From NCBI GenBank assembly GCA_016207275.1, contig JACQPY010000007.1, positions 10,265 to 74,264 of the forward strand: 64,000 nucleotides of DNA, written 5' to 3'. This DNA is from Candidatus Kerfeldbacteria bacterium. Lineage in GTDB: Bacteria > Patescibacteriota > Patescibacteriia > SBBC01. Made by a program: the position numbers and the translations under genes. This document shows positions 1,614 through 64,000 of this stretch, piece by piece (positions within the stretch are counted from its first letter, which is position 1; each line of letters opens with the position of its first letter). The notes beneath the pieces were generated by a model, which saw nothing but the letters and a program-made list of their open reading frames with translations, had not been told where the DNA came from and made no database searches.

Positions 1614-1649
1614 ACAAAACTAACCCTCGAACTGACGGGTTAGTTTTGT
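1614..1649. terminator. Bidirectional hairpin terminator
   Basis: acaaaactaaccc-tcgaactgac-gggttagttttgt gives a 13-bp stem. It lies between the small ORF on the plus strand and the converging 1640..2887 minus-strand gene. Confidence 0.5.
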
Positions 1650-4263: not shown

Positions 4264-4300
4264 ACTACCTACTAAATTCTCTCATACTAACCACTATACC

Positions 4301-37347: not shown

Positions 37348-37597
37348 ATGACTGTGGGATTGTGGTCACAAAAATCGCGGGTGGCCACGGCACAAACTAG
37401 GGATAACTCTCCCCGCCGTTACCAAACCACCAACACCTTATCCCATTGACGCCGACGCCTGCCAACAACCCCCACCAACCCACCCACACTGCCACCAACA
37501 CAAAAACCACACCACCACCACCCCTAACCCCAACAAGCAACCACCGAAACAATGGTTATCCACTTTCCCACCGTCCTTATTACTATTACCATCTGGT
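37348..37597. promoter_or_regulatory. Candidate oriC in the dnaA-dnaN intergenic region
   Basis: DnaA boxes GTTATCCAC (about 37552), TTATCCCA and TGTGGGAT. An AT-rich stretch ttattactattaccatctggtatgaaaat. A CA-only tract of about 110 nt at 37440-37550. Confidence 0.5.
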
Positions 37598-47589: not shown

Positions 47590-48959
47590 GGCTTGGTCGA
47601 GCTCGGCTGTTCGTACCGGCGCAGTTCTTTAATTCGGTCGCGGAGTTGCGCCGCCCGTTCGAACTCTTGTCGACTCGCCACCAAGGCCATCTCCTTTTCC
47701 AGGTTTTTGATGATTTTCTCGATCTCCCGTTTTGGCAACGTCGGCATGCCCTCGTCGGTACGTTGGCGGATTTCCTCGTCTTCCTGTTTCGACAGCGCCT
47801 CGACAATGCCCTCCCGCTGCCAATCGAAGCCGGTAAAGACGATTCGCTGGTAGAGATCAGTCGCCCGGCGTTTAGCCTCGTCGCTCGCGCCCGGCGTTTT
47901 CAGGACTACATCTCTCAGTTCCTTGGCTCCGCGCTCGATCATTTCCAGCGACCACCACGGCTTGGCCGAGGCCCACCAGTACTGATCAGAGTGCAGCGCT
48001 CGGTCCAGCAGCTGGCGGGCTTCAGCGTAACTTGGGCCGGTAGCGCTAGCGGCCCCGAGGGTGGCGATCGCCAGATCAGTCAGCTGCCACTGCAGCTGGT
48101 GAATAGTGTTGTCCTGATCGTCCCAGCGGGCGAAGGGGACGCTGCGCTCCAAGTCCTTTTCCATCAACGCCCAGGTTGACGGCAAGAGGCTGACCGAGGC
48201 GGTCGCGGTGAAGCGCTGCGGCAAATCAGAAATCAGCACGGTTTCCAGGAGCTTCGATTCGTAGACTTCGAAAAGGAGGTGCTCCATGCCCGGTCGGTGG
48301 TGGCCAAACGTTTCACCATCCATCGCCGTTAGGAGGTACTCGTGGCGTTGGAGCCGGTCGCCCAAACCTTCGATTAAGAGGTTGCCGGTGCCGAGCTGAC
48401 CAGAGAGAATTTTGTAGCTCATCCGCCGTTCGCGGAAGTAGATTTTCAAGGCCGGGGCGTCGGCATTGGTGTAGATTTTGGCGTAGTCAATTTTGCCGAG
48501 TTGGCGGTTAAAAGATAACTCATCGCAGATAATCCATTCAAAGCCGAGCCGGGACACGACTTCAGCCACGTGTTTTGAGATGCCCATTTCCGGTGGGAAA
48601 AATCCACGCGGTCGGTAGAGGTCGCCGAAGTACTGGCGATGTGTTTGAGTATTGAGCTCAATTTGCCGGATAATTTCTTGATCCGGAAGTCGGGGGAGCA
48701 GGGGATGGAACTTGGCCGAACCGGTCAGCTCGATTTGTCCGCATTTCAGCAGTTCGCGGACGAGGTCAATGACATCGGTCGCGCCGTTCTGTTCCCACAG
48801 CTCGACCAAAATGGAGCTGATATTCATGGTGGTCCGCGCGTGCGCGTGTTCGAGCATGCCGCGGAGAATTGGTCGGTACGACTCGGCCGTGATTTTTTTC
48901 ACCCAAAACAGCTTCTGGGTCGGCGGTTGGTAGAAGTGCAGGAAGTTGGCCCAAATCAT
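47586..48959 (-). CDS. Glycoside hydrolase family 57 domain fused to a C-terminal UVR (UvrB/UvrC-type) motif
   Basis: N-terminal MIWANFLHFYQPP GH57 signature. C-terminal QEFERAAQLRDRIKELRR UVR helix-hairpin. Confidence 0.6.
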   Translation of the reverse strand: MIWANFLHFYQPPTQKLFWVKKITAESYRPILRGMLEHAHARTTMNISSILVELWEQNGATDVIDLVRELLKCGQIELTGSAKFHPLLPRLPDQEIIRQIELNTQTHRQYFGDLYRPRGFFPPEMGISKHVAEVVSRLGFEWIICDELSFNRQLGKIDYAKIYTNADAPALKIYFRERRMSYKILSGQLGTGNLLIEGLGDRLQRHEYLLTAMDGETFGHHRPGMEHLLFEVYESKLLETVLISDLPQRFTATASVSLLPSTWALMEKDLERSVPFARWDDQDNTIHQLQWQLTDLAIATLGAASATGPSYAEARQLLDRALHSDQYWWASAKPWWSLEMIERGAKELRDVVLKTPGASDEAKRRATDLYQRIVFTGFDWQREGIVEALSKQEDEEIRQRTDEGMPTLPKREIEKIIKNLEKEMALVASRQEFERAAQLRDRIKELRRYEQPSSTKP

Positions 48960-48979
48960 ATACTCGGGTGTGAAACCTT

Positions 48980-49090
48980 CCCCGACTGGATCGGGGATTT
49001 CCCCCTCCGATGCTCCCCCCTTCCCTTTAGGGTGTCGACCCTTGCGGCTCCGCTAGGGTCCCGTCCGTTGGACACCCTGATCGTCGCCGC
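48980..49090. repeat. GC-rich structured intergenic element: C-rich run plus AGGGTGTCgac...GACACCCT inverted repeat
   Basis: Lies between the two GH57 genes. 8-bp inverted-repeat arms with a GTCGAC core. Same C-rich flavour as the palindromic element family. Confidence 0.4.
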
Positions 49091-49158
49091 TGCAGGTCGA
49101 CGGGTTGTTATACAAAAGCCTAAGATTAGCATGACGTAGTTGGAGCCTTTTGATGCTT

Positions 49159-50376
49159 TTAGTTTACACTTTTTCCGCCGAGGTAGCGAGGCATTGGCTC
49201 GTGGCGCATGAAGCGCTTGAGGTGACGGTCGGCGGCGCCGGAAGCGTGCCAGCGATGAGCGGTGTTTTTGATGCTCCCGACCAACCTACGGACTCGTTCG
49301 AGGGTCGAGTGCGGCGGGCTGAGCTCCTCAGCCAGAAGCCGCAGCCGTTCGGCGGCCTGCATAATGATGTCGACGTCCCACCACGGCTCGCGTGAGGCCC
49401 ACCAGTACCAGTCGCTAGCCATCGTCTGGTCGAATTCGGTCCGGATCGGCCGGGGCAGTCGGTCGCGGCGTTCGTGGTGGTAGACTAACTTGAGCACGGT
49501 GGTAAACAGCGCCCATTGGAGCTGGTGCAGGTGATTTGCGGGGTTTCGCCAGAGGACAAAGGGCACGTCGCGAGCCAGGTCGGCTGGCCGACTGGACCAG
49601 CTGGCCGCCCGCGGCCGGACGGTGCGCGGACCGTCGAGCGATTTAAGCACCTCCGAGATGGTCACCGTTTCGACGGTGGGAAGCCGGACCAGGTGCTGCC
49701 ACATTTTTTTGGCCGCCCGCCGGTGGTGGCCAAGGTTTTCGCCGTCCATCGCCGTGATCAGTAGACTCTTCTGCCCGTTCCATCGCTGGACCGTCGAGAA
49801 GAACTTGTGAACGTCCCCAGGTTGCGCTTCGAACGCCAGGTAGTCGCTGACAAAGCGGTTGCGGAAAACGGCGGTCAGGGTCGTGCCGGCGATTCGGTAC
49901 TGTTGTTCGTAGTTAACCAGTCCCGGGTGACTGATCCCGTCAAGGATAACCCAGCGGTAGCCGAGCTGGCTGAGCCACCGGCCGAGCTTGGCATTGTAGG
50001 CCATCTCCGGCGGAAAGAAGCCGGCCGGCCGGTAGGCCGAACCAAAGGCTCGCCGGTTGGTGGCCCGGTTGAGAGTTACTTGACGCCGAACCTCGGCTTC
50101 CGGCAGGAGCGGCAGAATCGCGTGGTACATCGCCGAGTCGGTCAGTTCGACCTGGCCCCGCTGCAAGAGTCGACGGAGCCCGGTCACGATTGGCCGAAAG
50201 GCTCGCTGCTGCAGCTGCTCGGTCAGCGAGCCGGCAATATTAATGGTCACCCGCACGTCACGGTGGCTGAGCAAAAACGAGATCAGCGGGCGGTAGCTTT
50301 CCCGCGCCACTTTAGCGATGACGCGCGTCGGCCAGTGCGGCGGCTGGTAGAGGTGAAAGAAGTTAGCCCAGCGCAT
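49159..50376 (-). CDS. Glycoside hydrolase family 57 protein (second copy)
   Basis: MRWANFFHLYQPPHWP. The start was set at the internal ATG 50376, because the longer ORF would overlap glgA-2. Confidence 0.6.
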   Translation of the reverse strand: MRWANFFHLYQPPHWPTRVIAKVARESYRPLISFLLSHRDVRVTINIAGSLTEQLQQRAFRPIVTGLRRLLQRGQVELTDSAMYHAILPLLPEAEVRRQVTLNRATNRRAFGSAYRPAGFFPPEMAYNAKLGRWLSQLGYRWVILDGISHPGLVNYEQQYRIAGTTLTAVFRNRFVSDYLAFEAQPGDVHKFFSTVQRWNGQKSLLITAMDGENLGHHRRAAKKMWQHLVRLPTVETVTISEVLKSLDGPRTVRPRAASWSSRPADLARDVPFVLWRNPANHLHQLQWALFTTVLKLVYHHERRDRLPRPIRTEFDQTMASDWYWWASREPWWDVDIIMQAAERLRLLAEELSPPHSTLERVRRLVGSIKNTAHRWHASGAADRHLKRFMRHEPMPRYLGGKSVN

Positions 50377-51853
50377 CAGAACGTTCGTGTGATCGTTGTT
50401 TTTGCAGCACCATCGCCTGTCGGTACAGCTCGACGTACTTCTCGGCCGGGATGTCCCAAGAATACGATTCTTGCATGGCTTGCCAGGCGAGGTGCTCCCA
50501 CACCTGCGGGTACTTGAAGGTTTCCAGGGCGCGGACGATTGCCACCAGCAGGTCGTCCGAGGCGTAGCGCGAAAAAACAAAACCCGTACCTTTGCCAGTG
50601 CGCGGATCGAAGTCCTCGATCGTGTCGGATAGGCCGCCGGTTTTGCGGACGATGGGAATGGAGCCATAGCGCAGGCTGATGAGCTGGGACATGCCGCACG
50701 GTTCGTAGCGGCTGGGCATCAAGAACATGTCTGAGCCGGCGTAAACCCGAGAGCCGAGTTCTTCGGTGAATGGCGTGAGCAAGGCGATGCGGCCGGGATA
50801 GGTCCGAGCTGCCCGCCTGAAAATGTTGACGTAGTCTCGGTCACCGGTGCCGACAATGACCATTTGGAGGGGCAGCTGCATCAGAACCGGCAGGATGTTT
50901 TTGATTAAGTCAAAGCCCTTCTGCTCGGTCAAACGATGAACCAGCCCGATCAGGGGAATATCGTCGCGCGGCTCGAGGCCGATCATTTTCTGAAGCTCGC
51001 CTTTGTTCTGACGCTTGCGGTCGAGAGAGTTCCAATCGTAGGGGTGCCACAGGTGCGAGTCAAACTGCGGGTTGTAGACTTGGTAGTCAATGCCGTTGAT
51101 GATTCCGAAGACATCTTTCTGACGACGGCGAAGGAGGCGGTCGAGGCCCTGACCGTACTCCGGGGTTAAAATTTCTTGGGCGTACCGGACGCTGACGGTA
51201 TTGATCGCGTCAGCGTAACGAATGCCCCGCTTGGCGAAGTTGACCCACCGGATTTTGGCACTGCTTTTCGGCAGCGGGCCGAGTCCGACATCAACTTTAT
51301 CTGACGGACCCTGCCACCAGTTTCCCTGCATTTGGAAGAGTAAGTTATGGATGGTGACGACGGTTGCCGTTTTGCTGAAAAACGGATTATCCTGCTCACG
51401 GGTCCGGAGAATATTTGGGATGATGGCGGTGTGCCAATCGTGGCAGTGAATGACGTCGGGTGGTTCGCCGAGGCGTTGGGCCAGCTGGACGACCGCCATC
51501 GAGAAGACGGCGAAGCGGAGGGCGTCGTTGTCGTGCCCGTACATGTAGACTTGATACCGGCCGTACAACTCCTCGCTACAAATAAAGTAGATGTCCAGAC
51601 CTTCGCGGAGTTTAAGGTGTTTAGTTTTTAGGTGGTAGGTGCCATCGCCGATCGCCACGTCGAACTCGATTCCCGGCTGATCGTAAGGAATCTCGGCGTT
51701 CTTCATGAAGCCGTAGAACGGCGTGACTGAGACGATCCGGTGTCCGAGCTTCGCCAGGTGTTTTGGCAAGGCGGCGGCCACGTCGCCTAAGCCGCCACTT
51801 TTCGAGTAGGGTGAGACTTCGGCGCTGGCGCTCAGGATAAAGAGGGGGTTCAT
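50363..51853 (-). CDS. glgA: Glycogen/starch synthase (GT5, second GlgA paralog)
   Basis: AEVSPYSKSGGLGDVAAALP. Confidence 0.8.
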   Translation of the reverse strand: MNPLFILSASAEVSPYSKSGGLGDVAAALPKHLAKLGHRIVSVTPFYGFMKNAEIPYDQPGIEFDVAIGDGTYHLKTKHLKLREGLDIYFICSEELYGRYQVYMYGHDNDALRFAVFSMAVVQLAQRLGEPPDVIHCHDWHTAIIPNILRTREQDNPFFSKTATVVTIHNLLFQMQGNWWQGPSDKVDVGLGPLPKSSAKIRWVNFAKRGIRYADAINTVSVRYAQEILTPEYGQGLDRLLRRRQKDVFGIINGIDYQVYNPQFDSHLWHPYDWNSLDRKRQNKGELQKMIGLEPRDDIPLIGLVHRLTEQKGFDLIKNILPVLMQLPLQMVIVGTGDRDYVNIFRRAARTYPGRIALLTPFTEELGSRVYAGSDMFLMPSRYEPCGMSQLISLRYGSIPIVRKTGGLSDTIEDFDPRTGKGTGFVFSRYASDDLLVAIVRALETFKYPQVWEHLAWQAMQESYSWDIPAEKYVELYRQAMVLQKQRSHERSDALG

Positions 51854-52935
51854 GAGGTTAGCGGAATGTCCAGCTCATTGGCGGCCAGCACGAACATGGC
51901 GTGGCTCCAGACGAGGGGGGAGATGCCAATCCGGAAGTCGCTAAACAGTTGCTCGGGGAGGTACCGATCGACGCGGTCAATGACCCAGTTAAAGTAGGCC
52001 TCAGCCTTTTCTCGATCCCCGGCGCGGTTCAGGACGATCGCCAACCAGAAGTTGAGCACCGGCCAAGCGCCGCCGCCTTCCCAGGCCGAACCTTCCGAAT
52101 CGAAGTAGTCAAACTGGTAGCGGTGGACGCCGCCGTCAACCACCAGCGTCCGTTCGATTGTTTGGATGGTGCTGAGCATGCGCTCGTCGTTGGGTTCAAC
52201 CATCTCGAACGGCCAGCCTAAGCCGAGAACTGAAGCGTCGATGTTGGCGTCGTCAATCTTACCGTGGTTGCGCAGGAAGTAGCCGCGCTGCTCATCGTAG
52301 GCCTCGTCGACCTCCTTTTCCATTTCTTGGGCGGTTTGCTTCCAGAGCTTGTGCGGCCAGAGTTCGTTGGCCAGGAAGAGTCCTCGGCTGCAGGCGGCGA
52401 TCGAGTAGGTGAAGTTGTTTTCCACCCGAGACGAGGTCTGGCGAAAGCCGTCTTCCCAGAGATCGACGGTGTTGGGCAGAAAGTACGTTTTGTTCCAGGC
52501 CGCGGTTAAGCCGTCGCACAACCGATCAACCAATGCTCGGAACTGGTTTGCCCGCTTCCCATCGCCATGACAGTACTGGTGGATGGCCCATAAGACCGTG
52601 CCCATTTGGTCTGGTTGGAACATTCGGCCCATGCTGCCGATCCGTCCGTTGGTCGAGTAGTTGGAGAATAACAGGCGGTCTTTCTGAAAATCCTCTGGTT
52701 TTGTTTCCAGCCAGCGAAAGAACGACTCGGCCGCAGGCAATCCCAGCTTTTCCGCGGCCAGGGCAGTGAAGCAGGCATCACGCGGCCAGACGTAGCGGTA
52801 GTCAGCCGCCTCTCGCGGGTAGTAGGGTTTGTCCGAGTTGGCGGCGACGATCGCGCCGTTATCGAGCATGGCGTCGTCAATGACCTGGCGCGACGATTCG
52901 AGCAGGCGAGTGATTTTGGCGCGGCGATCAGTCAT
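51850..52935 (-). CDS. Glycoside hydrolase family 15-like (glucoamylase/glucodextranase catalytic barrel only)
   Basis: YRYVWPRDACFTALA and the (alpha/alpha)6 length. First gene of the operon. Confidence 0.55.
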   Translation of the reverse strand: MTDRRAKITRLLESSRQVIDDAMLDNGAIVAANSDKPYYPREAADYRYVWPRDACFTALAAEKLGLPAAESFFRWLETKPEDFQKDRLLFSNYSTNGRIGSMGRMFQPDQMGTVLWAIHQYCHGDGKRANQFRALVDRLCDGLTAAWNKTYFLPNTVDLWEDGFRQTSSRVENNFTYSIAACSRGLFLANELWPHKLWKQTAQEMEKEVDEAYDEQRGYFLRNHGKIDDANIDASVLGLGWPFEMVEPNDERMLSTIQTIERTLVVDGGVHRYQFDYFDSEGSAWEGGGAWPVLNFWLAIVLNRAGDREKAEAYFNWVIDRVDRYLPEQLFSDFRIGISPLVWSHAMFVLAANELDIPLTS

Positions 52936-54273: not shown

Positions 54274-55365
54274 TTGAATGCTCGACGCATGCCGCACCGG
54301 CTAGACACTACACGTTTGTACCGATCCCGCGCCCGGCAGCTGGTGCTGGCGTCGTTGCGTTCGTTCGCCGAGCAGTGTCGTCGTGGATTTGCCGAGGCGC
54401 GAGCGGTAACGTTTCCCGCCTCGTTTCGGAAGATCGACCAGGTCGTGGTCGTCGGCATGGGCGGTTCGGCGCTGGGCAGCGACGTTATTCGGAGCGTGTT
54501 TTTTGATCAGCTGCGCCTGCCGCTGACCGTGGTCAACGGCTATGCCTTGCCGCGCTCGGTTACGTCGCGCACGCTCGTAATCCTGTCGAGCTACTCGGGT
54601 ACAACCGAGGAGGTACTGGCGGCGGCGGCCAGCGCCCACCGTCACCGCGCCCGGATTACGGGTTTGACCGTAGGCGGCCCGCTCGGTACCTGGTTTCGCC
54701 GCCACCAGTTGCCGTGGTACCGAATTGACGGCGGCGCCAACCCGGCGGGGCAGCCGCGCCTCGGCTTAGGCTACAGCATCATGGGTCAGCTCGGGTTGCT
54801 GGCAGGCTTAGGACTAATTCGCCTGCCAGGCCGGGCGGTGACTTCCCTGGCGGCCTACCTGGAACGCCGCGCCTGGGATTTTGACGTAGCCCGACCAAAA
54901 CGGACCAATCCTGCCAAGCAGCTGGCCGTAACACTCCGAACCTCGTTGCCGATTGTGGTTGGGGCGGAGCACTTGAGCGGCAGCGTCCACGCGATGGCCA
55001 ATCAATTGAACGAAACCGCCAAGACGTTGGCCGTACCCTTCCAGCTGCCAGAACTTAATCACCATCTCCTCGAAGGGTTGCGTTGGCCGCGCGCTGTTCG
55101 GCAAGCCACGATGGTGCTGTTCCGATCAGACCTCTACCACCGGCGCGTGGCCACCCGCGTTCGAGTTACTGCTGAGTTGGCTGAACGAGCGGGGCTACGG
55201 GCAACCGTGGTCCCCGTCCACGGTATGGATCGCCTGACCCAAGCGTTCGATCTCCTTGTCTTCGCCGGCTACGTCAGCTTGTACCTCGCCGTAGTGCACG
55301 GCGTCGATCCGTTAGCTATTCCGACGGTCGACGAGCTGAAGCGCCGGCTGCACCGCGCGGCCTAG
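54274..55365 (+). CDS. Bifunctional phosphoglucose/phosphomannose isomerase (SIS domain, archaeal-type PGI/PMI)
   Basis: VVVGMGGSALGSDV SIS motif. 363 aa. Confidence 0.6.
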   Translation: MNARRMPHRLDTTRLYRSRARQLVLASLRSFAEQCRRGFAEARAVTFPASFRKIDQVVVVGMGGSALGSDVIRSVFFDQLRLPLTVVNGYALPRSVTSRTLVILSSYSGTTEEVLAAAASAHRHRARITGLTVGGPLGTWFRRHQLPWYRIDGGANPAGQPRLGLGYSIMGQLGLLAGLGLIRLPGRAVTSLAAYLERRAWDFDVARPKRTNPAKQLAVTLRTSLPIVVGAEHLSGSVHAMANQLNETAKTLAVPFQLPELNHHLLEGLRWPRAVRQATMVLFRSDLYHRRVATRVRVTAELAERAGLRATVVPVHGMDRLTQAFDLLVFAGYVSLYLAVVHGVDPLAIPTVDELKRRLHRAA

Positions 55366-55399: not shown

Positions 55400-57082
55400 T
55401 TGGGTCGGAGGCGACGATGTCTTGGCTCACTGCCGTCGTGGCGGTATACTTTTAGTATGCCGTCGTTCGTGACTCGGGTCCGGTCGTGGTATCGTGCCCA
55501 CGGGAGTTGGGTTGGCTACCTAATTGTCTTTTCGTTGGCCTTTATTTTGTTCGCCTATTGGCAGCACCTGCCGCTGTACGCTGATCCCGACTCGTTCTAC
55601 CATGCCAAATTGGCCGTCCTGCTGCGTGACGGTCAATTCGTGACTGACTTTGCCTGGTTGCCGTTTACGACGCTCGCCCAGACCTACGCTGATCAGCACT
55701 TTCTTTACCATCTGTTGCTCGTGCCGTTCGTGAGCCTGACTGACCCGCTGATTGGGTTAAAGTTGGCGACGGTCGTCCTCGGCGCCTTGATGGCGTTGAC
55801 GTTCTACTGGTTTCTCCGCCGCTGGCAGATTCCCTGGGCCTTGGCCACGACGGTAGTTTTGTTGCTGGTCAACCCGTTCAGTTTTCGGATGAACCTGGCC
55901 AAAGCCTCGAGCCTATCGCTGACCTTGTTGCTGATCGGGATCGCCGCCGCCTTTGCCTACCGACCGTGGGTTCTTGGTCTATTGGCCTTTTGCTACGTCT
56001 GGTTCTACGGCGGCTTCCCGCTGCTCGTGGTGGCGACGCTGACGTTCGCGGTGGTCAGCTATCTGCATAAGCGATTCGTTCGGCGTGAAAATCCGAACCT
56101 GTTGCTCCACCGCATCCGCGCCCTCCTGGGACGCCTGTTTCGGCACCGACGGGTTCGCCGTCTTAACCTGCGTATGGCGGTCGCGGTGCTGGCCGGAACC
56201 GGCCTGGGGATTGTGCTCAATCCCTTTTTTCCGGCTAACCTCCGATTCTACCTTGACCAATTTGTTCGCATCGGGATCGTCAACTATCAGAAAACAATCG
56301 GCGTCGGCGGTGAATGGTATCCGTACGGCTTTATTGATTTGATGGCTAACACGGTTTTGGTTTCGATTCCGCTGGTGATCACCATCGTTTTGTTTTTCTT
56401 AAACTGGCGGAAACAGAGCACCCGCTCGATCACCCTGGCCTTACTATGGTTGTTCTTTTTTCTGCTGACGCTCAAGTCGCGCCGCTACGTCGAGTACTAC
56501 GTGCCGTTCGCCTTGCTGTTCGTTGCGTTTTCGCTCCACGATTCACTTCGCCACGTCCGCTTCCGTGACCTCTGGTTTCGGGTGCGGGCCTGGTTTTTAC
56601 GGAGCGGTTGGGCCCGAATCGGCATCGTCGCCTTTGCCACCTACGTCGCCATCGTGCTGCCGACCGTCGTGGTCCGCGACTTGGTGAGTGAGCGACGAGA
56701 TCTCGCCCATGGTTTTCGACTCGACTTGTTTGCCGACGAGAGCCGCTGGATCGCCGAACACAGTCACCCCGGGGCGGTCGTCTTTCACAGCGACTGGGAT
56801 GAATTTCCTACGCTGTTCTACTTCAACAGCTACAACCGTTATATTGCCGGTCTTGATCCGACCTTTTTGTACTTAGAAGATCCAACGCGCTACCGGCAGT
56901 GGGCCAACGTGACGCTCGGCAAGGAAACCGGCGATGTCTATGAGATTATTCGCGGCAGTTTTAATGCCGATTTTGTGTTTGTCGAGCACGACCACCAGGC
57001 GATGGATCGCTTGATTGCGGCCGACGATCGGTTCTCGTTGGTCTACGACGGGCCGGATGCCAAGGTTTACCAGGTTGATTGA
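55400..57082 (+). CDS. GT-C-like polytopic membrane glycosyltransferase (ArnT/PMT-like loop)
   Basis: YADPDSFYHAKLAVLLRDGQF first-loop motif. More than 12 TM segments. The start may be the ATG at about 55457 (MPSFV). Confidence 0.5.
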   Translation: MGRRRRCLGSLPSWRYTFSMPSFVTRVRSWYRAHGSWVGYLIVFSLAFILFAYWQHLPLYADPDSFYHAKLAVLLRDGQFVTDFAWLPFTTLAQTYADQHFLYHLLLVPFVSLTDPLIGLKLATVVLGALMALTFYWFLRRWQIPWALATTVVLLLVNPFSFRMNLAKASSLSLTLLLIGIAAAFAYRPWVLGLLAFCYVWFYGGFPLLVVATLTFAVVSYLHKRFVRRENPNLLLHRIRALLGRLFRHRRVRRLNLRMAVAVLAGTGLGIVLNPFFPANLRFYLDQFVRIGIVNYQKTIGVGGEWYPYGFIDLMANTVLVSIPLVITIVLFFLNWRKQSTRSITLALLWLFFFLLTLKSRRYVEYYVPFALLFVAFSLHDSLRHVRFRDLWFRVRAWFLRSGWARIGIVAFATYVAIVLPTVVVRDLVSERRDLAHGFRLDLFADESRWIAEHSHPGAVVFHSDWDEFPTLFYFNSYNRYIAGLDPTFLYLEDPTRYRQWANVTLGKETGDVYEIIRGSFNADFVFVEHDHQAMDRLIAADDRFSLVYDGPDAKVYQVD

Positions 57083-57089
57083 GCGGCCG

Positions 57090-57734
57090 ATGATTTCCGA
57101 TGACCAGCTGCGGGCGCGTCACCAGGCGGTCCCGCCTGATTACTACGACCGCGGCGTGCGGATCAACGCCTGGCAGCGTGTCTGGCACGAGCGTCGCCGT
57201 CCAATTGTGGAACGATTGCTGATCGGCCGCGGTGGCCGCTTGCTCGACGTCGGCTGCCACGGTGGGTACCTGACGCGGATTATTGCCCAGGCCAGTCGGG
57301 CGGCGGTTACCGGCATCGACATTTCGCCGCCAGCGGTGGCCTACGCCCGGGCGTACGTCCCAGCCGCCCAGTTCGTCGTTGGCGACATCCAGGACGGCCT
57401 GCCGTTTCCCGACGGCAACTTTGAGACGGTGACGGCTTTTGATGTACTCGAGCACGTGCCGCGCCTGGAGTCGGTACTGCGTGAAGTTCACCGCGTGCTC
57501 GCGCCGGGCGGGTTATTTGTAATTGGCGTACCGCGCGAGACGCGGCTGTGGCGTTTGGTGTGGACACTGTGGGTCAAATCGCGCGGCGCAGTCTGGCACG
57601 ACGTCCACGTCCATAAATTCACGCCCGAACGACTGTCTGAGGTGATTACCGCTCAAGGGTTCGGCGAGCGTCAACGCGTGGTATCGCACTGGGGAATGTA
57701 CAGCGTCTTAACGTTTGAACGAGCAAAAAGATGA
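57090..57734 (+). CDS. Class I SAM-dependent methyltransferase
   Basis: LLDVGCHGGYL motif I. VLAPGGLFVIGVP. Confidence 0.7.
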   Translation: MISDDQLRARHQAVPPDYYDRGVRINAWQRVWHERRRPIVERLLIGRGGRLLDVGCHGGYLTRIIAQASRAAVTGIDISPPAVAYARAYVPAAQFVVGDIQDGLPFPDGNFETVTAFDVLEHVPRLESVLREVHRVLAPGGLFVIGVPRETRLWRLVWTLWVKSRGAVWHDVHVHKFTPERLSEVITAQGFGERQRVVSHWGMYSVLTFERAKR

Positions 57735-58999
57735 TTGGCCTGGATGCGCTGCTGCTGTTTGTCTTGGTCTTGAAAACGGTTTCGCTCTTTACCCTGCGAA
57801 CCTCTGCCTACTTGTTCGCCTTACCGGATAACTACTTGGTGTTTTCGATTGTTCCCTTGCTGGTGCTCGCTGGGTATGTTGCCGTGAGTGCTCTCCGGCC
57901 GGCTCAGCGCAGCTGGAACGTACGCTTTGGCGCTGTCGTGCTGCTGGGCGTGTTCTTGGTCGGGTCACTATTTGGACTACAGCTGTTCGCCCGCCGCAAC
58001 AGCCTGCCGTACTTGTTCATCCACGACGGCGCAGTGCAGGCTGAAGATGCCATCGCTGCGCTTCGCCAGGGCCAGAATCCCTACACGATTGATTACCGTG
58101 AACGGACATTCGGCGCTTTCCCCGACGGCTTTTCCGAGGCCACCCGGCCGAACCCAGCCTGGACGCACCACATTTACTTGCCCTTGCAGTTGCTGCTCGG
58201 CTTACCGATTGCCATCGTGAGTGAAGTGTTGTGGGATTGGTTTGATATACGACTGCTGTACGCATTATCGTTCGCGCTTCTCATTATCTGTACGGCGCTG
58301 CTGAGCAAAAACCTGGAGCGCCGGTTACTCGTCCTGATACTCGGTCTATTCAATCCGCTTTTCCTACCGTTTTTTGCGGCCGGATTTAATGATGTATTTT
58401 TTCTCGGCTGGATCGCGCTCGGGGCCCTCCTGTTGCAGCGAAGACGATTTACCTTGGCCGGATTGGCGCTTGGTTTTGCCTTTGCCAGTAAGCAGTCAGC
58501 CTGGTTTCTCCTGCCGTTCTACGCGGCTTACGTCTACGCTACGGCTGGCGGACCGCGTCGGTGGTGGGTCGCGGCACGTCGGCTGCTGCCGGCGGTGCTG
58601 GTGACCGCCGTGGTGATCGCGCCGTTCTTTGCTTGGTCGCCGGCCGACTTTATTGACGACACGATTCGCTACGGTACGGGCAGTGCCGAGCTGAGTTACC
58701 CGATTTCCGGATTCGGCCTCAGTCAGCTGATGCTGGCGTCCGGCGTCATTCGCTCGTCGTGGGATTATTATCCGTTCTGGATTTTCCAGGTGATCGTCGG
58801 CCTGCCGCTGTTGGCGGTGTTGATCCGCCGGCAACGGCGAGATCCGTCGGTCAGCCAGATGCTGACCTCATTCGGGCTGCTGGCTTTTGCCTTGTGGTTC
58901 GTGTCGCGTTTTTTCAACGACAGCTACGTTGGTGTGCTGTCAGTCGTGTTCTTGCTGGCTTACGCCGCTCAGGAGCCAGCCCGAGAAAACAATGTTTAG
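57731..58999 (+). CDS. Polytopic membrane protein, probable GT-C mannosyltransferase (DUF2029/GT87-like), paralog A
   Basis: NPLFLPFFAAGFND...ASKQSAWF, shared with paralog B. Confidence 0.5.
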   Translation: MIGLDALLLFVLVLKTVSLFTLRTSAYLFALPDNYLVFSIVPLLVLAGYVAVSALRPAQRSWNVRFGAVVLLGVFLVGSLFGLQLFARRNSLPYLFIHDGAVQAEDAIAALRQGQNPYTIDYRERTFGAFPDGFSEATRPNPAWTHHIYLPLQLLLGLPIAIVSEVLWDWFDIRLLYALSFALLIICTALLSKNLERRLLVLILGLFNPLFLPFFAAGFNDVFFLGWIALGALLLQRRRFTLAGLALGFAFASKQSAWFLLPFYAAYVYATAGGPRRWWVAARRLLPAVLVTAVVIAPFFAWSPADFIDDTIRYGTGSAELSYPISGFGLSQLMLASGVIRSSWDYYPFWIFQVIVGLPLLAVLIRRQRRDPSVSQMLTSFGLLAFALWFVSRFFNDSYVGVLSVVFLLAYAAQEPARENNV

Positions 59000-60293
59000 G
59001 GCCGCGGTTAGCTTTTTTTCACCGCTTACTGAGCGTTTGAGGTTATACTCGCCTCGTTCGTGGGTTCTGGTTTTGTTGGGGCCAACCTTTATGGCGCTTG
59101 CTCGACCGTACATCCGTGTTGGGCAGTGGGGAATTATCATCCTGACGCTGCCGTTGTTGGTCGCGCTGATTATAAGCTTGGTCGATGATCTAACGAAAAA
59201 GACTCGGCCTGGATCGTGGACGGTGGCGATAGTTGTTTTTTGGATCGCAGCACTGTGCCTGGTTAATCTGGTGACGCTCCCGAAACAGTCAATGGATGAA
59301 GTGTTGCTGACCGAAGAAGCTCAACGCGGGTTAGTCCACGGACTCAATCCGTACCAGCGCAACTTTCAAGGAACCATATTCGACCAGTGGCGCGGCGATC
59401 TGCGACCCTTTGGCGGCATTCATCCGGCAACTGAGCACTACGTCTACTTTCCGGGTCAGATCGTGATGAGTTTACCCTTTTTCGCATCGTTGACGGCGAC
59501 TGGCTGGTACGATCAACGGATTGTCTATTTTACAGCCTATTTCGCTTTACTGCTGGTAATCTGGATGAACTTGCGTGGATCAGCAAACCGCGAAGCGCTG
59601 GTGTTGGCATTTGCACTGAATCCCTTTTTTGTTTTCTTGTTCTACGGCTTCAATGACCTGATGGTGCTGTTTCTCTTCGCCGCCGGTAGCTTTTGCTTTG
59701 CCCGCAGTCGATGGGGTCTGGGGGCAGTATTTTTCGGGGCGGCGGTCGCCACTAAACAGACGGCGCTGATTACGGTTGCGTTTATGCTGCTGTGGCTCTG
59801 GTTTTCACCGGCCGTTTCACGTCGGTCTCGGATACGGGCGTCGCTAATCGTCGTTGGTATGGCGGCGGTTATCATCGGTCCGTTCGTGCTGTGGTCTCCA
59901 TCCGCCTTCACCGAAGACACGATCGATTTCTTTACATCGGGGATGGGAACGACTACCCCTGGTGAGGGTTTCGGTAAATTGCTGATGCTGGCCGGCTGGC
60001 ACAATGCAACAGCGTCACCCTTACGCCGATTGGTGGAACTGGCGATAGTTTTCTCCATTATTGTCTGGCTGGCTGGTTGGGTTATTCGCCGGCCGTCACT
60101 CTACCGTGCGATCTTGGCCGGCGCAATCGGCTTAGCCGCTATCTGGTTTTTCTCGTCGTATTTTTTGCCGGCGCATGCCGGAGTAGTTCTCATTTTAATA
60201 ACGCTGGCGTATCTTATTAATGAAGTTGAAGGACGAGCGACCTCGCTCGGCACTTCAGCGGTTAGCGCCGGGTCTAAGATTCAACCGTCATAA
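58992..60293 (+). CDS. Polytopic membrane protein, probable GT-C mannosyltransferase, paralog B
   Basis: NPFFVFLFYGFND...ATKQTALI. Start at the ATG at 58992, overlapping the upstream stop by 8 nt. Confidence 0.5.
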   Translation: MFRAAVSFFSPLTERLRLYSPRSWVLVLLGPTFMALARPYIRVGQWGIIILTLPLLVALIISLVDDLTKKTRPGSWTVAIVVFWIAALCLVNLVTLPKQSMDEVLLTEEAQRGLVHGLNPYQRNFQGTIFDQWRGDLRPFGGIHPATEHYVYFPGQIVMSLPFFASLTATGWYDQRIVYFTAYFALLLVIWMNLRGSANREALVLAFALNPFFVFLFYGFNDLMVLFLFAAGSFCFARSRWGLGAVFFGAAVATKQTALITVAFMLLWLWFSPAVSRRSRIRASLIVVGMAAVIIGPFVLWSPSAFTEDTIDFFTSGMGTTTPGEGFGKLLMLAGWHNATASPLRRLVELAIVFSIIVWLAGWVIRRPSLYRAILAGAIGLAAIWFFSSYFLPAHAGVVLILITLAYLINEVEGRATSLGTSAVSAGSKIQPS

Positions 60294-60295
60294 TC

Positions 60296-60952
60296 ATGCC
60301 TCGTTCAAAGTTCACCACGCCCGTGCCCGAAACGCTGACCGAGACGTTTCAGTTGGCAAACAAACGTTTCTACCGGGAAGAAGAGGATTACGACTGGGTA
60401 CGCGCGACCGACCGCCTGGTGGGCGTTGAGAGCATTTTTCACAAGTTCCGCGAGCGGACAGTGCGGAAGTTGATCGGACGGTATGGAAGGCCTGGCCAGT
60501 ATCTTGACGCTGGCTGCGGCAGCGGGTTGTTTTTACGACACTTGCCGCCGGGATCGGTGGGACTGGATATAAACCCGCGAAACATCGATCGTGCCCGGCA
60601 GCACGCACCGCACGCCGAGCCGGTGCTCGGTGACATTGAGGCCATGCCGTTCCCTGATGGTACTTTTTCTACCGTCGTCTTGACCGAGGTGATTGAACAC
60701 CTTCCCGATCCGCGACCGGCACTGAGAGAGGTGATGCGCGTAATCACATCGGCCGGAATTGTAATTGGCTCGACCCCGCGACGGAGTATCTTTTGGAAAC
60801 TACGCGGCTTGAGCAGTACATGTCCAGGTGAACCGTTTCACCGCGAGTTTAGCCGTCAGGAGCTATACCAATTGTTAGCGGCTTTTGGTCGGCCGACTGT
60901 CGCCATGAAACATTTCGGCATGACTTGGGCGTTCACGCTTCAGCGGCGATGA
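60296..60952 (+). CDS. Class I SAM-dependent methyltransferase (second)
   Basis: YLDAGCGSGLFL. DGTFSTVVLTEVIEHLPDP. Confidence 0.7.
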   Translation: MPRSKFTTPVPETLTETFQLANKRFYREEEDYDWVRATDRLVGVESIFHKFRERTVRKLIGRYGRPGQYLDAGCGSGLFLRHLPPGSVGLDINPRNIDRARQHAPHAEPVLGDIEAMPFPDGTFSTVVLTEVIEHLPDPRPALREVMRVITSAGIVIGSTPRRSIFWKLRGLSSTCPGEPFHREFSRQELYQLLAAFGRPTVAMKHFGMTWAFTLQRR

Positions 60953-62181
60953 CCCGCATCTGGCCGGCGGTATTTACGGTCGTGGTAGCGACGAGCATCC
61001 TCGTCGTCGTGGCCGGACTTAGTCGTGAACTCCCGCCGCACGCCCGGCAACCCCTAACCACGCTCGTTCAGGATGACTACGAGCTGGCCGTCTTCTACAA
61101 CCGGACTGACTTCGTTCGCCGCGGTGAGCTGCCGTACGTCGGGGAAACGATTGCGTACCCCCTGCTCGGCGTTGTGTACGTAATGTTGCCTCGGTTATTT
61201 GGTACGGACTTTGCCGACTACCGCACGGGGTTGGTCCTGCAGAACGTAATCGTCACGGTGTTGCTGATGCTGGTTACCGCCCGCTTGCTTCGGCAGTTAG
61301 GACGGCCGCGGCACTGGCTGTGGCTGCTGGCGCTGCCCGGCTTCCTGTATTTTGCCTTGTACCGCTACGATGTATTTCCGGCGCTGCTCGTGGTCGTGGC
61401 TTTTCTGTGTCTATTCTCGCGGCGCTACGGGCCAGCCTTCATTACCCTCGGCATCGCAGTGCTCGCTAAGGGTTACCCGATCGTACTTTTTCCCATTATG
61501 TTTGCCTACTGTGGTCAGGAAAAAGGTCAGTACCCAAACCCGCTTTTCAATCGCTACGTCTTTATGACGCTGGCCCCATCAGCGGTGGTACTGGCGGCGA
61601 TGAGCTGGGCGGCCGGAATTGAGAAGGCACTTTTTCCGTATCTATTTCAGACCAGTCGGCAGATCGACCACGGGACGATCTACCTCTGGTACGCTGAGTG
61701 GTTTCGGCAACACCTGACGAGGCCAACGTGGAACTTATTGAACATGGTGTTTTTGAAGATGTTAGCCTTACTTCAGGTCGTTCTACCACTCAGCATCTAC
61801 CTTGGTCATCGGTATTTCAGCCGGCTGATTCGTTACCCCCGTGATGTGGTTGTCTGGTCAGTCTTGACCTTACTACTGTTCATTCAATTTTTCCCCTACC
61901 ACTCACCACAGTGGTTCATTTGGATCCTGCCGCTGCTCGTACTGGTTATTGAGACGCGCGCCCAACTGGCAGTGGTGATCAGCTACGGCCTCGTCACCTA
62001 CCTGCAGTTTCCGGTGGCCTTCAACTACTTCGGCTATGATTCGTTGGTCCACGGCGGCATCGTCATGCTGCGGACCACGCTTCACCTCAGTCTATTCGTC
62101 TTGCTGGCGCGGGAATTTATCAGTGGTCAGCGCCGCGATCGTGGTATGCTGAGCGCATACCATCAGGAGTCGCCGCGATGA
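60925..62181 (+). CDS. Polytopic membrane protein, probable GT-C glycosyltransferase, paralog C
   Basis: More than 10 TM segments. YRYDVFP...SRRYG...LAKGYP pattern similar to paralogs A and B. Confidence 0.45.
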   Translation: MGVHASAAMTRIWPAVFTVVVATSILVVVAGLSRELPPHARQPLTTLVQDDYELAVFYNRTDFVRRGELPYVGETIAYPLLGVVYVMLPRLFGTDFADYRTGLVLQNVIVTVLLMLVTARLLRQLGRPRHWLWLLALPGFLYFALYRYDVFPALLVVVAFLCLFSRRYGPAFITLGIAVLAKGYPIVLFPIMFAYCGQEKGQYPNPLFNRYVFMTLAPSAVVLAAMSWAAGIEKALFPYLFQTSRQIDHGTIYLWYAEWFRQHLTRPTWNLLNMVFLKMLALLQVVLPLSIYLGHRYFSRLIRYPRDVVVWSVLTLLLFIQFFPYHSPQWFIWILPLLVLVIETRAQLAVVISYGLVTYLQFPVAFNYFGYDSLVHGGIVMLRTTLHLSLFVLLAREFISGQRRDRGMLSAYHQESPR

Positions 62182-62864
62182 CACCCCAGGCATCAGTCGT
62201 TCTCCCGACCTACAATGAGGCAGCTAATCTCAGCGAGCTAATTCCTCGGCTGGCGGCGCTCAAGGGCGGTATAGAAATCGTGGTGGTCGACGACGGCTCG
62301 CCCGACGGCACTGAGCAGGTGGCCAACCATTTGGCCGGCCACTACCCGGTCCGCGTGCTTCAACGAGGCACCAAGCGCGGCCTCGCTTCGGCCGTGATCG
62401 ACGGCGTTCAGGCTGCCCGGGCGCCGATTGTGGTGGTAATGGATGCTGACCAGTCGCACGACGAGCAGATTATTCCCCAGCTGGTTACGGCGGTTGAAGC
62501 CGGCAGTCAGGTAGCCATCGGCTCGCGGTTTGCTTCGGGCGGGTCAACTGAAGATGCAGTCATCCGGCGTTTTTTTAGCTGGTGCGCAAAGCAAGTTGCC
62601 CGACTGGTGCTTGACGTCCGGATACAGGATCCGATGAGCGGCTTCTTTGCCATGCGCCGCGATGATTTTCTTCGCCTCGCACCACAGCTCAAACCGCGCG
62701 GGTTTAAGATTTTACTTGAGCTACTGGTCCGCCTGAAACCAGCGAAGGTGACTGAAGTTGGTTTCCGCTTCAAGAGTCGGCAGAAAGGAGAGAGCAAGCT
62801 GACCGGCAAGATTGCTTTGGAGTACTTTCGAATGATTTTCGAATTATGGCGAGCGCGACACTGA
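62178..62864 (+). CDS. GT2 polyprenol-phosphate mannose synthase (Ppm1/DPM1-like)
   Basis: VVLPTYNEAANL, IVVVDDGSPDGT, and the DAD motif VMDADQSHD. Confidence 0.75.
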   Translation: MTPQASVVLPTYNEAANLSELIPRLAALKGGIEIVVVDDGSPDGTEQVANHLAGHYPVRVLQRGTKRGLASAVIDGVQAARAPIVVVMDADQSHDEQIIPQLVTAVEAGSQVAIGSRFASGGSTEDAVIRRFFSWCAKQVARLVLDVRIQDPMSGFFAMRRDDFLRLAPQLKPRGFKILLELLVRLKPAKVTEVGFRFKSRQKGESKLTGKIALEYFRMIFELWRARH

Positions 62865-64000
62865 GCAACGGCGACCGATGGCGCGGGGCAGCTGCGGTTG
62901 GCCTATGCCTGGTTATTTTGGTTGGTTTCTGGTCAGTCGGCGCGAGCAAAGATTTTTGGTACGATGAGCAATTCGTTAGAACACTGGTTGACCAACCGAT
63001 GACCGAAACAATCAAGCTCCTGAAGTTCGAAAATAGTCCGCCATTTACTTTTGCGGTCGTTTACTGGTGGGAAAAGTTGGTAGGTAGCAGTGAGGTAGCC
63101 CTCCGCGTGCTGTCGCTCGGGCCGACGTTGTTGGGGATTGTTGTTTTGTCTCGGTTTGCTCGGGCGGCTTTTGGTCGGACCAGCGGATTGGTCGTGGCCG
63201 GGTTGGCGAGCGTAGCCAGCCTGGCGGTGACGCAGGCCCTGGAACTGCGAATGTACCCGTGGGTGCTGCTGTGGTCGACCTCAGCTCTGTTCCTGGTACA
63301 TCAGTACGCGTCCAAACCTCGAGCGACAGCATTGATCGCGCTGACCGTAGTTCACGTTCTCGGCTTGTACACGCACTACACGTACGTCGTAGTCGTCGTG
63401 GCGAGCGGCGTGTGGTTGTGGTGGGGAGCAAGAGTACAGCGTCGAGCAATTGCGCTGCACGCTGCGGTAGTCGCAGTGTTATTTTTGCCATGGGTCCTTT
63501 ACTCACTGGTACCAATTGCCCAACATTGGACGACAAGCCTTGGCGTCCAGCAGGACCGGAACCTGCTGGCGATCGCCCTGTTCCCGCTCCGCCTGTTTGC
63601 CATGCCGCTGTTTGGTGAACCGAACTGGCTGACCGTCGTTCGCTTCATGGTCGCGGCGATAATCGGACTAGGCATTTTGTGGTCATTGCGGCTCCTGTTG
63701 CGGCCAACCGACGATCGTAGCGTTGTGGTTCTGCGGTGGCTATTCGGCCTGGTCGTCGGCGGACTGCTGGTACTGGCCCTGGCTGGATTTTCCGATCCAA
63801 AGTACGCGACCGTGTTGGTGCCAGCCGTTATTGCGGTGGTCGCTGTTGGCTTAGTACGGCTACCGCTGCCAGGAGCCGTTCGGGCAGTGTTGATAGTTTT
63901 AGCGGTGGTCGGCGAGCTCGTCGTCAGCTACGCGCACGCTCGCGCGCCGCTGGTGACGTACCGCGAGGCAACCGCAGTGGTTGAGCGCGTGGGACAGACC
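62846..64000 (+). CDS. ArnT/PMT-family GT-C glycosyltransferase, 3' partial (runs off the window). It is absent from the ORF track.
   Basis: The frame is open from the ATG at 62846 to 64000. KDFWYDEQFVRTL first-loop motif. Multiple TM segments. Confidence 0.55.
   Translation, partial: MASATLSNGDRWRGAAAVGLCLVILVGFWSVGASKDFWYDEQFVRTLVDQPMTETIKLLKFENSPPFTFAVVYWWEKLVGSSEVALRVLSLGPTLLGIVVLSRFARAAFGRTSGLVVAGLASVASLAVTQALELRMYPWVLLWSTSALFLVHQYASKPRATALIALTVVHVLGLYTHYTYVVVVVASGVWLWWGARVQRRAIALHAAVVAVLFLPWVLYSLVPIAQHWTTSLGVQQDRNLLAIALFPLRLFAMPLFGEPNWLTVVRFMVAAIIGLGILWSLRLLLRPTDDRSVVVLRWLFGLVVGGLLVLALAGFSDPKYATVLVPAVIAVVAVGLVRLPLPGAVRAVLIVLAVVGELVVSYAHARAPLVTYREATAVVERVGQT

Follow-up and report, generated by a model that had tools for sequence, protein, structure and literature searches.

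Several described systems assemble glycans outside the cell membrane with enzymes of the GT-C fold. In mycobacteria and corynebacteria, a synthase of the DPM1 type (Ppm1) makes polyprenyl-phosphate-mannose (PPM), which serves several paralogous GT-C mannosyltransferases of family GT87, namely PimE, MptA, MptB and MptC/Rv2181. In PimE, the catalytic aspartate D58 at the tip of the first juxtamembrane helix (JM1) and the phosphate-binding lysine K195 are both essential (PMC12041525). Three-component Gtr systems consist of a GtrB-like synthase, a flippase of the GtrA or MATE type and a single GT-C enzyme (PMC11127046). The haloarchaeal Agl pathway uses the GT2 enzymes AglJ and AglD, the methyltransferase AglP, the GT-C enzyme AglS and the oligosaccharyltransferase (OST) AglB (PMC3871713). 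The OSTs of family GT66 (STT3, AglB, PglB) are defined by two DXD motifs and the motifs TIXE/SVSE, WWDYG and DK/MI (PMC8342417). The present work concerns an operon at the right end of a 64,000-nucleotide stretch of contig JACQPY010000007.1 (hereafter, the window). The operon region represents the first two thirds of a ~15-kb island in the genome of a Candidatus Kerfeldbacteria bacterium (Patescibacteria, or candidate phyla radiation, CPR). The island probably encodes an extracytoplasmic glycosylation pathway driven by polyprenyl-phosphate-mannose and making a strain-specific, partly methylated glycan. By analogy, its logic appears to resemble that of an O-antigen or N-glycan locus. The main interest lies in the comparative picture and in the family of its first gene, g1, rather than in the annotation of the cluster.

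Gene order and enzyme families of the island

The original prediction described eight overlapping, co-directional genes, and this arrangement is borne out by the list of open reading frames (ORFs) and by independent public gene calls, which agree on the gene boundaries. The genes lie on the + strand in the order g1, MT1, gA, gB, MT2, gC, GT2 and gD (Table 1) and are tightly packed, with successive junctions consisting of a 7-nt spacer, overlaps of 4 and 8 nt, a 2-nt spacer, and overlaps of 4, 4 and 19 nt. The gene calls were taken from a public 15.9-kb Logan contig (L001) that is identical to the last 8,854 bases of the window (window coordinate = L001 + 55146). Extending the window with this contig, as had been proposed, reaches the end of the operon, which continues for ~4.6 kb past the window end. 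The extension comprises the rest of gD, which is cut at position 64000 and has a full length of 509 amino acids (aa; L001 7700-9229), a gene for an 812-aa protein and a gene for a 542-aa membrane protein (g542). Beyond them, the contig carries a DUF2079 gene in convergent orientation and the end of a T4SS_pilin gene. According to topology prediction, MT1, MT2 and GT2 have no transmembrane (TM) segment, and every other island protein has at least seven.

The match of GT2 to the dolichyl-phosphate-mannose (Dol-P-Man) synthase of Pyrococcus (PfDPMS, PDB 5mlz) covers residues 4-225 with an E-value of 5.9e-54 and 186.5 bits. The segment D89-A-D91 is in register with the DAD motif of 5mlz, so the Ppm1-like synthase that had been predicted in the cluster does carry the DxD on alignment. 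The scores against ArnC (38.1 bits) and the GtrB homologue sll0501 (37.7 bits; E ~2e-8 for these matches) place GT2 closer to the characterised Dol-P-Man synthase than to polyprenyl-phosphate-sugar synthases of the ArnC/GtrB type. The membrane anchor typical of types I and III was not found in GT2. Because no hydrophobic segment is present and the match to 5mlz stops before the TM domain, the enzyme resembles the anchor-less type, examples of which are human DPM1 and M. smegmatis Ppm1.

The proteins gA, gB and gC fall into one GT87-like family (C1), to which gC is joined through intermediate sequences in single-linkage clustering. In the GT87 profile check, gA and gB score over the gathering threshold and gC under it (Table 1). 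In addition, gB passes the ALG3 gathering score (1.7e-5), and gA carries a precomputed MptA_B_family match. The two are paralogues, with 30% identity over 325 aa (E 3e-29), as the original prediction had it in calling them clear tandem duplicates with shared NPxF, GFND and KQ motifs. However, the pair is retained in relatives whose g1 is only 47% identical, which indicates an old rather than a recent duplication, and the shared motifs are columns conserved across the whole family. The third paralogue, gC, does belong to this family and keeps its invariant Asp and Lys, but it is only distant kin of the other two (BLAST E 0.045).

Within 45 family sequences, gC included, the sole invariant columns are D99 and K254 (gA numbering), while P117/Y118 (NPY), P209 and D221 (GFND) are conserved in at least 90%. 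A profile of these 45 members, searched against the PDB, matches only GPI mannosyltransferase I (PIG-M/Gpi14), a Dol-P-Man enzyme, over nearly its full length (E 1.5e-13 to 5.9e-12), and the invariant D99 aligns on the DXD of PIG-M. The same search gave no match at E<=1 to PimE, the solved GT87 enzyme (9dm5). Judged by these profile scores, the family sits between GT50, GT87 and GT58. It is plausible that D99 and K254 are the counterparts of the catalytic Asp and phosphate-binding Lys of PimE. On this basis, gA would be a mannosyltransferase dependent on polyprenyl-phosphate-mannose.

Both genes predicted to encode S-adenosylmethionine (SAM) methyltransferases, MT1 and MT2, match Methyltransf_11, and their products are soluble. 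They are paralogues of each other (33% identity over 190 aa, E 6e-28). The last gene of the window, gD, was rightly called ArnT/PMT-like, as it passes the gathering score of 26.1 for PMT_2 (PF13231; E 9.7e-9) both as the window fragment, with 36.1 bits, and at full length, with 35.2 bits. A lone gene of the PMT_2 type elsewhere in the window (Table 1) shows no BLAST similarity to gD.

The mechanism proposed for the island begins at the inner membrane face, where the soluble GT2 would load mannose from GDP-mannose onto polyprenyl phosphate; the enzyme family is established here, and mannose is the sugar suggested by it. The lipid-linked sugar would then be flipped across the membrane. Outside the membrane, enzymes assigned to GT-C by fold or family (gA, gB, gC, gD, g1, g542 and the DUF2079 protein) would transfer the sugars. 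Because SAM is cytoplasmic and the methyltransferases are soluble, the most likely role of MT1 and MT2 would be O-methylation of the sugar at the stage of a nucleotide- or lipid-linked precursor. In this scheme, the constant enzyme g1 would carry out the initiating or attaching step, and the strain-specific glycan would be set by the GT-C, GT2 and methyltransferase genes that vary.

The 812-aa protein has no such assignment. Its match to NCBIfam PRK03612 (1.8e-15) is far under the cut-off, its gene was seen in the source island only among the 81 loci compared, and a role as a transporter or flippase is possible. A scan of the island for promoters and terminators gave a signal no better than chance.

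Conserved frame and variable content among relatives

A pattern scan that took one genome from each GTDB species found relatives of g1 in 282 species genomes, and all informative names belong to Patescibacteria. The named carriers are Kerfeld-, Falkow-, Komeili- and Buchananbacteria, Parcubacteria and one metagenome-assembled genome (MAG) named Candidatus Microgenomatus. As far as seen, the g1 family is restricted to Patescibacteria. Many MAGs with the locus (L008, L014, L027, L029, L030 and others) are titled 'uncultured Gammaproteobacteria bacterium' in third-party annotation (TPA) assemblies, which is probably a labelling artefact.

The comparison of the locus included 81 non-redundant related loci, 47 of them complete, with both flanks visible. 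These loci share a conserved frame that consists of glycogen genes, RuvC, YebC, usually a gene for a bifunctional phosphoglucose/phosphomannose isomerase (PGI/PMI), g1 and a variable stretch. The right side of the variable stretch usually has a gene of the g542 family, then DUF2079 in convergent orientation and then VirB2-like pilin genes in an array. PGI stands directly upstream of g1 in 42 of the 71 related loci with enough upstream sequence. In the source genome, the PGI/PMI gene ends 91 nt before g1 and matches NCBIfam models of the bifunctional enzyme with E-values down to 1.5e-72, under the equivalog cut-offs. To its left, on the opposite strand, lie YebC, RuvC and then glycogen-type genes. 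The glycogen/alpha-glucan block of the window (Table 1) is syntenic with the left flank of the island in most relatives.

Between these flanks, the content of the locus is highly variable. The 47 complete loci show 26 gene orders, with 0-11.5 kb between g1 and the first convergent gene, and the source island is the largest allele among them. The variable genes belong to a limited number of families. GT87-like proteins are encoded in 43 loci and DPM1-like GT2 proteins in 35, where two copies are common; 16 loci carry methyltransferases, with as many as four copies, and the remainder are PMT_2-like proteins and several membrane families without annotation. When compared profile against profile with hhalign, nearly all of the variable membrane families were interlinked as GT-C. 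Both methyltransferases, gC and the 812-aa gene are missing from L005-L009, whose g1 is 65-70% identical to that of the source, which shows that gene content changes over short evolutionary distances. Such fast turnover between fixed flanks is characteristic of a surface structure exposed to diversifying pressure from host recognition, phage or predation.

The constant member g1 and its probable relation to oligosaccharyltransferases

The constant member of the locus, g1, has no Pfam or NCBIfam match, and a scan of 56 homologues against Pfam at E<=10 returned no GT-C family. A few homologues match the recent Pfam families DUF7649 and DUF7657 weakly (E 0.001-0.004). In the NCBI database, g1 corresponds exactly to 'hypothetical protein HY567_00960 [Candidatus Kerfeldbacteria bacterium]'. 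Its family comprises 3381 representatives at 50% identity with E<=1e-3, and 1,340 with E<=1e-30. Single-sequence searches of the PDB with g1 and gA gave no matches, and the full-length g1 profile gave only a chance match.

The AlphaFold2 model of g1, built on 56 sequences (pLDDT 92.1, pTM 0.89), predicts a multi-helix membrane domain followed by a C-terminal extracytoplasmic alpha/beta domain of ~125 residues. In a Foldseek search of the PDB with this model, yeast and human STT3 come first (E 2e-9 to 1e-7, TM-score up to 0.66), together with PglB (3e-7) and AglB (6e-7). Lower matches include DPY19, ALG12/ALG9 and ArnT (1e-4, TM-score 0.52), and then AftD, PimE and PMT. The top 18 matches are STT3, PglB, AglB and DPY19, and among the top 35 there are only GT-C enzymes and the GT-C-like PIG-U subunit of the GPI transamidase. 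The original prediction had labelled the gene 'GT-C (ArnT-like)'; the GT-C fold agrees with the model, but g1 is not ArnT-like by sequence, and its predicted fold is nearest to the OSTs.

Five motifs of g1 are essentially invariant in 84 loci: [D/E]PDSFYH right after TM1, VGxEW in a long external loop, KSRRYVEY, H-x-[D/S]-WD-[E/D]-FP at the opening of the C-terminal domain, and GLDxTF. Their correspondence with the defining motifs of OSTs is partial. The segment [D/E]43-P-D45 after TM1 is kept in 84/84 loci, and no alignment of it to the first DXD of OSTs was obtained; the second DXD was not found in g1. E286 is invariant (V-G-x-E-W), and a low-probability hhalign segment (2.3%) puts it in register with the Glu of TIXE in PglB and places R343 opposite the Arg of GLRFTIY. 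WWDYG is not kept, its place being taken by SDWDEF (H-S-[D/S]-W-D-[E/D]-F-P in the family). Membership of g1 in GT66 was considered and rejected: there is no Pfam STT3 match, WWDYG is not kept, and hhalign comparisons with PglB and STT3 profiles were negative. These tests used a C. jejuni PglB query 99% identical to its database entry, a profile of the PglB family and, derived from an STT3 fragment, a profile of the N-terminal part of STT3.

A link to the OSTs emerges through g542, whose family is paralogous to that of g1 (hhalign probability 96.7%, E 3.6e-10) and has the same architecture. When the C-terminal domain profile of the g542 family was searched against the PDB, all eight matches at E<=10 were OSTs (E 0.005-0.06), namely fungal and human STT3A/B, yeast STT3 and the C-terminal domain of AglB-S2. 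The g542 segment '…eA..WLkqNT…vvlS…G..Ip…R' aligns with '…eAy.WLrqNT…imSWWDYGyqI…R' of STT3. The g542 family has no WWD, and only the surrounding segment (WLxxNT…S…) is STT3-like. The g1 consensus 'WLxxNTPxGSxVvHSDWDEFP' suits the WWDYG segment as well, with the second Trp and the Asp kept. These links suggest a probable common ancestry of g1 and g542 with the OST lineage, covering at least the C-terminal domain and the overall fold. The two proteins do not match the motifs that define OSTs, and OST biology gives no guide to their acceptor. A more far-reaching proposal is that g1 and g542 form an unrecognised, Patescibacteria-wide offshoot of STT3/AglB/PglB, coupled to a hypervariable glycan island and with targets that include VirB2-like pilins with NVT tails, which would give many CPR bacteria a system for glycosylating proteins; it must be regarded as rather doubtful.

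Weighing of the readings and comparison with known systems

A number of observations weigh against the proposed polyprenyl-phosphate-mannose pathway. Among the island ORFs of at least 200 aa scanned against Pfam, no GtrA-, MATE- or Wzx-like flippase was found, and a scan of 20 other window ORFs, a part of all ORFs in the window, revealed neither phosphomannomutase nor GDP-mannose pyrophosphorylase. GT2 reaches no equivalog cut-off, its best NCBIfam match being AglJ with 73.9 bits against a cut-off of 325, so that it is a putative polyprenyl-phosphate-mannose synthase whose DPM1/Ppm1 family is established and whose specificity for mannose is suggested by family resemblance. In 7 of the 47 complete loci, g1 occurs without any variable genes and is therefore independent of the rest of the island. 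For g1, the candidate role is derived from its predicted fold and from weak, transitive links in sequence via g542. Comparison of g1 with PglB by hhalign gave probabilities of 2.3% and, for the PglB family profile, 0.7%; comparison of its family with the profile of the N-terminal half of STT3 gave 0.08%. Moreover, the profile of the g1 C-terminal domain found no OST in the PDB. Finally, all sequences are from metagenome assemblies.

Three other explanations of the whole island have to be weighed against this pathway. In a lipomannan-like pathway, the GT-C enzymes would polymerise and branch a mannan on a membrane lipid or wall-linked primer, and the methyltransferases would add methyl caps. 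The logic would be that of PIM/LM synthesis in actinobacteria, and the methylated mannan of the original prediction corresponds to this reading. This agrees with the GT87 scores of gA and gB, the MptA_B_family match of gA, the presence of at least three paralogous mannosyltransferases, which suits chain building, the Ppm1-type donor synthase within the cluster, and the fact that the nearest solved relative, PIG-M, acts on a glycolipid. It is nonetheless a tentative alternative, because the island has no lipid-primer enzyme (no PimA/PimB-type GT4 and no inositol-lipid genes), the GT87-like profile does not match PimE, and the conserved g1 and g542 are most like protein-modifying OSTs. Most Patescibacteria also lack lipid biosynthesis, and we know of no lipoglycan in this group. 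A different possibility, in our view an unlikely one, is the decoration of a finished polymer. Here, an expanded system of the three-component type would add side-chain sugars to a polymer made elsewhere, for instance by the genes at 1.6-6.8 kb, with variation resembling seroconversion. In its favour, the island has two of the three components that characterise such systems (a polyprenyl-phosphate-sugar synthase and GT-C enzymes; PMC11127046), close relatives are hypervariable in gene content, and the window also encodes two Wzy_C proteins, a GT4 and a flippase of the Wzx type. However, the Wzx/Wzy genes are ~50 kb away, the island has no flippase of the GtrA or MATE type, classical systems have one GT-C enzyme where seven are found here, and the conserved flanking GT-C proteins (g1, g542, DUF2079) point to a self-contained pathway. 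The original prediction would have failed if the membrane proteins had turned out to be transporters or other non-glycosyltransferases with no glycosylation pathway at all. Such a view could draw on the lack of Pfam matches for g1, g542 and several variable families, but none of the proteins classifies as a transporter. It is effectively refuted by the Pfam GT-C thresholds that gA, gB and gD pass, by the PIG-M match of the GT87-like profile (1.5e-13), by the GT-C or GT-C-like folds that make up the top 35 matches of the g1 model and by the interlinking of the locus families as GT-C.

The pilin genes beside the island suggest a specific version of protein glycosylation, in which g1, possibly with g542 and the DUF2079 protein, would act in the manner of an OST on the pilin tail while the variable genes would build or extend the glycan. 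T4SS_pilin genes were seen in 37 of the 81 loci and, where present, come after DUF2079 or immediately after g1. The pilins beside islands often end in …[N]TTxNVT(x) just past the second membrane helix, with one or two N-x-T sequons; the source-genome pilin, encoded by the next gene after DUF2079, ends in …VAGTTRNVTQ. The sequon N-x-S/T occurs in 35 of 61 distinct tails of type-1/2 pilins, against 16±3 in composition-preserving shuffles, and 26 of these are exactly NVT. It was found nowhere else in type-1/2 pilins and not at all in the third pilin type. Because the sequences are related, the excess represents conservation within one clade and not independent events. The best fold matches of g1, which are OSTs, and the parallel with the haloarchaeal Agl pathway (AglJ/AglD, AglP, AglS, AglB; PMC3871713) also fit this explanation. 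Against it, no more than 4-6 residues separate the tail Asn from the membrane helix. The eukaryotic OST needs about 12-14 residues between Asn and the membrane. VirB2/TrbC pilins are C-terminally processed and cyclised, which could be another cause of tail conservation. In place of WWDYG, g1 has SDWDEF, and the motif is absent from g542. Co-variation of the g1 motifs with the N-x-T tail was considered and rejected, as the motifs are invariant whatever the tail, including where pilins have neither a sequon nor a Thr-rich tail (L054, L062, L066, L038/41/43). Pilin arrays have been described in Patescibacteria without mention of glycosylation, and they also abound in Microgenomatia and Saccharimonadia (PMC12102498), which lie outside the named loci of g1 except for the one MAG named after Microgenomatus. 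Modification of the pilin tail by g1 is consequently the least likely of the pathways that involve glycosylation.

For the favoured pathway driven by polyprenyl-phosphate-mannose, the acceptor is best sought among surface or secreted proteins, since the conserved enzymes are OST-like, a PMT_2 member is present and pilin genes lie nearby; this preference still falls short of being probable. A lipid- or wall-anchored mannan as the acceptor is less likely, and a polymer made elsewhere less likely again.

Table 1. Coordinates of the island genes, their neighbours and other features of the window (positions beyond 64000 are window equivalents on L001).
Feature	Position	Strand	Assignment
PGI/PMI	54274-55365	+	Bifunctional phosphoglucose/phosphomannose isomerase; Pfam bact-PGI_C 4.1e-34
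g1	55457-57082 (ORF opens 55400)	+	541-aa multi-pass membrane protein, GT-C fold
MT1	57090-57734	+	Class-I SAM methyltransferase; Methyltransf_11 5.5e-25
gA	57731-58999	+	GT87/PIG-M-like GT-C; GT87 2.5e-8, 34.4 bits (gathering 25)
gB	58992-60293	+	GT87/ALG3-like GT-C; GT87 4.7e-9, 36.8 bits (gathering 25)
MT2	60296-60952	+	Class-I SAM methyltransferase; Methyltransf_11 1.2e-20
gC	60949-62181	+	Distant GT87/PIG-M-like; GT87 1.6e-4, 21.9 bits (under gathering 25)
GT2	62178-62864	+	DPM1/Ppm1-type, 228 aa; Glycos_transf_2 3.9e-31
gD	62846 to beyond 64000 (full end 64375)	+	PMT_2 (ArnT/PMT-like) GT-C
812-aa protein	64545-66983 (L001 9399-11837)	+	7 + 6 hydrophobic segments flanking a weak spermidine-synthase/aminopropyltransferase-like domain
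DUF2079 gene	right of g542 on L001	convergent	DUF2079 5.2e-50
T4SS_pilin (VirB2-like)	70793-71011 (L001 15647-15865)	-	PF18895 2.2e-13
O-antigen-like genes	1640-6786	-	Two Wzy_C (O-antigen ligase/polymerase-like), GT4, Wzx-type (Polysacc_synt) flippase
Lone PMT_2 gene	17484-18983	+	PMT_2 (ArnT/PMT-like) GT-C
Secretion ATPase	30259-31950	-	T2SSE/PilB-type
dnaA and dnaN	35986-38695	+	
Glycogen/alpha-glucan block	43161-52935	-	GalT-like, two starch-synthase-type GlgA, APH-family kinase, GH57, third GlgA-type, GH15

Other parts of the window also contain genes of surface structures. The O-antigen-like genes could supply a polymer for the island to decorate, and the T2SSE/PilB-type secretion ATPase probably serves a type IV pilus. 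Because dnaA and dnaN are present and the GC skew changes sign, from negative to positive, at ~32-36 kb, the chromosomal replication origin is probably located in the window, ~20 kb from the island. Genes of the type IV secretion system (T4SS) in Patescibacteria reportedly tend to sit near dnaA.

Patescibacteria account for a large share of bacterial diversity and live attached to other microbes, and their surface chemistry is almost unexplored. A search of the literature found no work tying them to GT-C enzymes, oligosaccharyltransferases or pilin glycosylation. The comparison presented here indicates that one large lineage spends up to ~15 kb of a ~1-Mb genome on what is probably extracytoplasmic glycosylation. 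The g1 family, with ~3,400 clusters at 50% identity, has no Pfam model, and its nearest structural relatives are enzymes of N-glycosylation. If this family were to consist of protein glycosyltransferases, OST-like chemistry would extend to a new bacterial superphylum, and compact modular GT-C cassettes would become available for glycoengineering. If the proposal of an OST offshoot were true, the appendages thought to mediate the episymbiotic lifestyle would carry a strain-specific sugar coat.

The described systems each share part of this organisation. Like the PPM-dependent mannosylation of mycobacteria and corynebacteria, the island combines a DPM1/Ppm1-type GT2, which would make polyprenyl-phosphate-mannose, with several paralogous GT-C enzymes predicted to act outside the membrane, with a candidate catalytic Asp after TM1 and a conserved Lys; gA and gB pass GT87. 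In mycobacteria, however, the genes are scattered, whereas here they form one operon with interleaved methyltransferases, without enzymes for a phosphatidylinositol primer, with hypervariable content and in a Patescibacterium that is presumed to be monoderm. The nearest solved relative of the island profile is also PIG-M (GT50) and not PimE. The original prediction further pointed to the loci of the 3-O-methylmannose polysaccharide (MMP) of mycobacteria, which likewise involve mannose and SAM methyltransferases. MMP is made in the cytoplasm by a soluble GDP-mannose-dependent mannosyltransferase, methyltransferases and a hydrolase. This analogy is poor, because every transferase of the island except the donor synthase is a membrane GT-C protein.

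The likeness of g1 to GT66 enzymes includes its predicted fold, with a multi-pass membrane domain and then an extracytoplasmic C-terminal domain. Candidate counterparts of OST residues are the acidic D-x-D that follows TM1, the Glu that is invariant in the long external loop and an Arg, also invariant, within a later TM region, to which the g542 family adds a C-terminal domain that matches OSTs only, at the WWDYG segment. On the other hand, g1 has no Pfam STT3 match and no significant profile match to PglB or the N-terminal half of STT3, has SDWDEF for WWDYG (which is absent from g542), shows no second DXD, has a C-terminal domain of only ~125 aa, and occurs in a bacterium outside the known PglB lineages. 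The haloarchaeal Agl pathway offers a similar set of parts, with a GT2 acting on a monophosphate lipid, a methyltransferase, a GT-C enzyme of the Dol-P-Man type and an OST-like enzyme (PMC3871713). Unlike Agl and other OST pathways, the island has no series of cytoplasmic glycosyltransferases that would assemble a lipid-linked oligosaccharide. The three-component Gtr systems also pair a GT2 synthase with GT-C activity and generate diversity of surface glycans (PMC11127046), but the island has seven GT-C genes instead of one, includes methyltransferases, has no detected flippase and has a synthase far nearer to the Dol-P-Man synthase than to GtrB (186 vs 38 bits). Relatives of each of the eukaryotic Dol-P-Man enzymes of the endoplasmic reticulum lumen and their partners (DPM1; PIG-M, ALG3/9/12; PMT; STT3) meet in one bacterial operon, a likeness at the level of family and fold only, with no sign of a lipid-linked oligosaccharide of the GlcNAc2 type or of glycosylphosphatidylinositol (GPI). 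Taken together, the island differs from the PPM, Gtr and Agl systems in uniting up to seven GT-C genes and methyltransferases in one operon with no recognisable flippase or primer enzyme. It is set apart, too, by an O-antigen-like hypervariable architecture anchored by an undescribed family with an OST-like fold.

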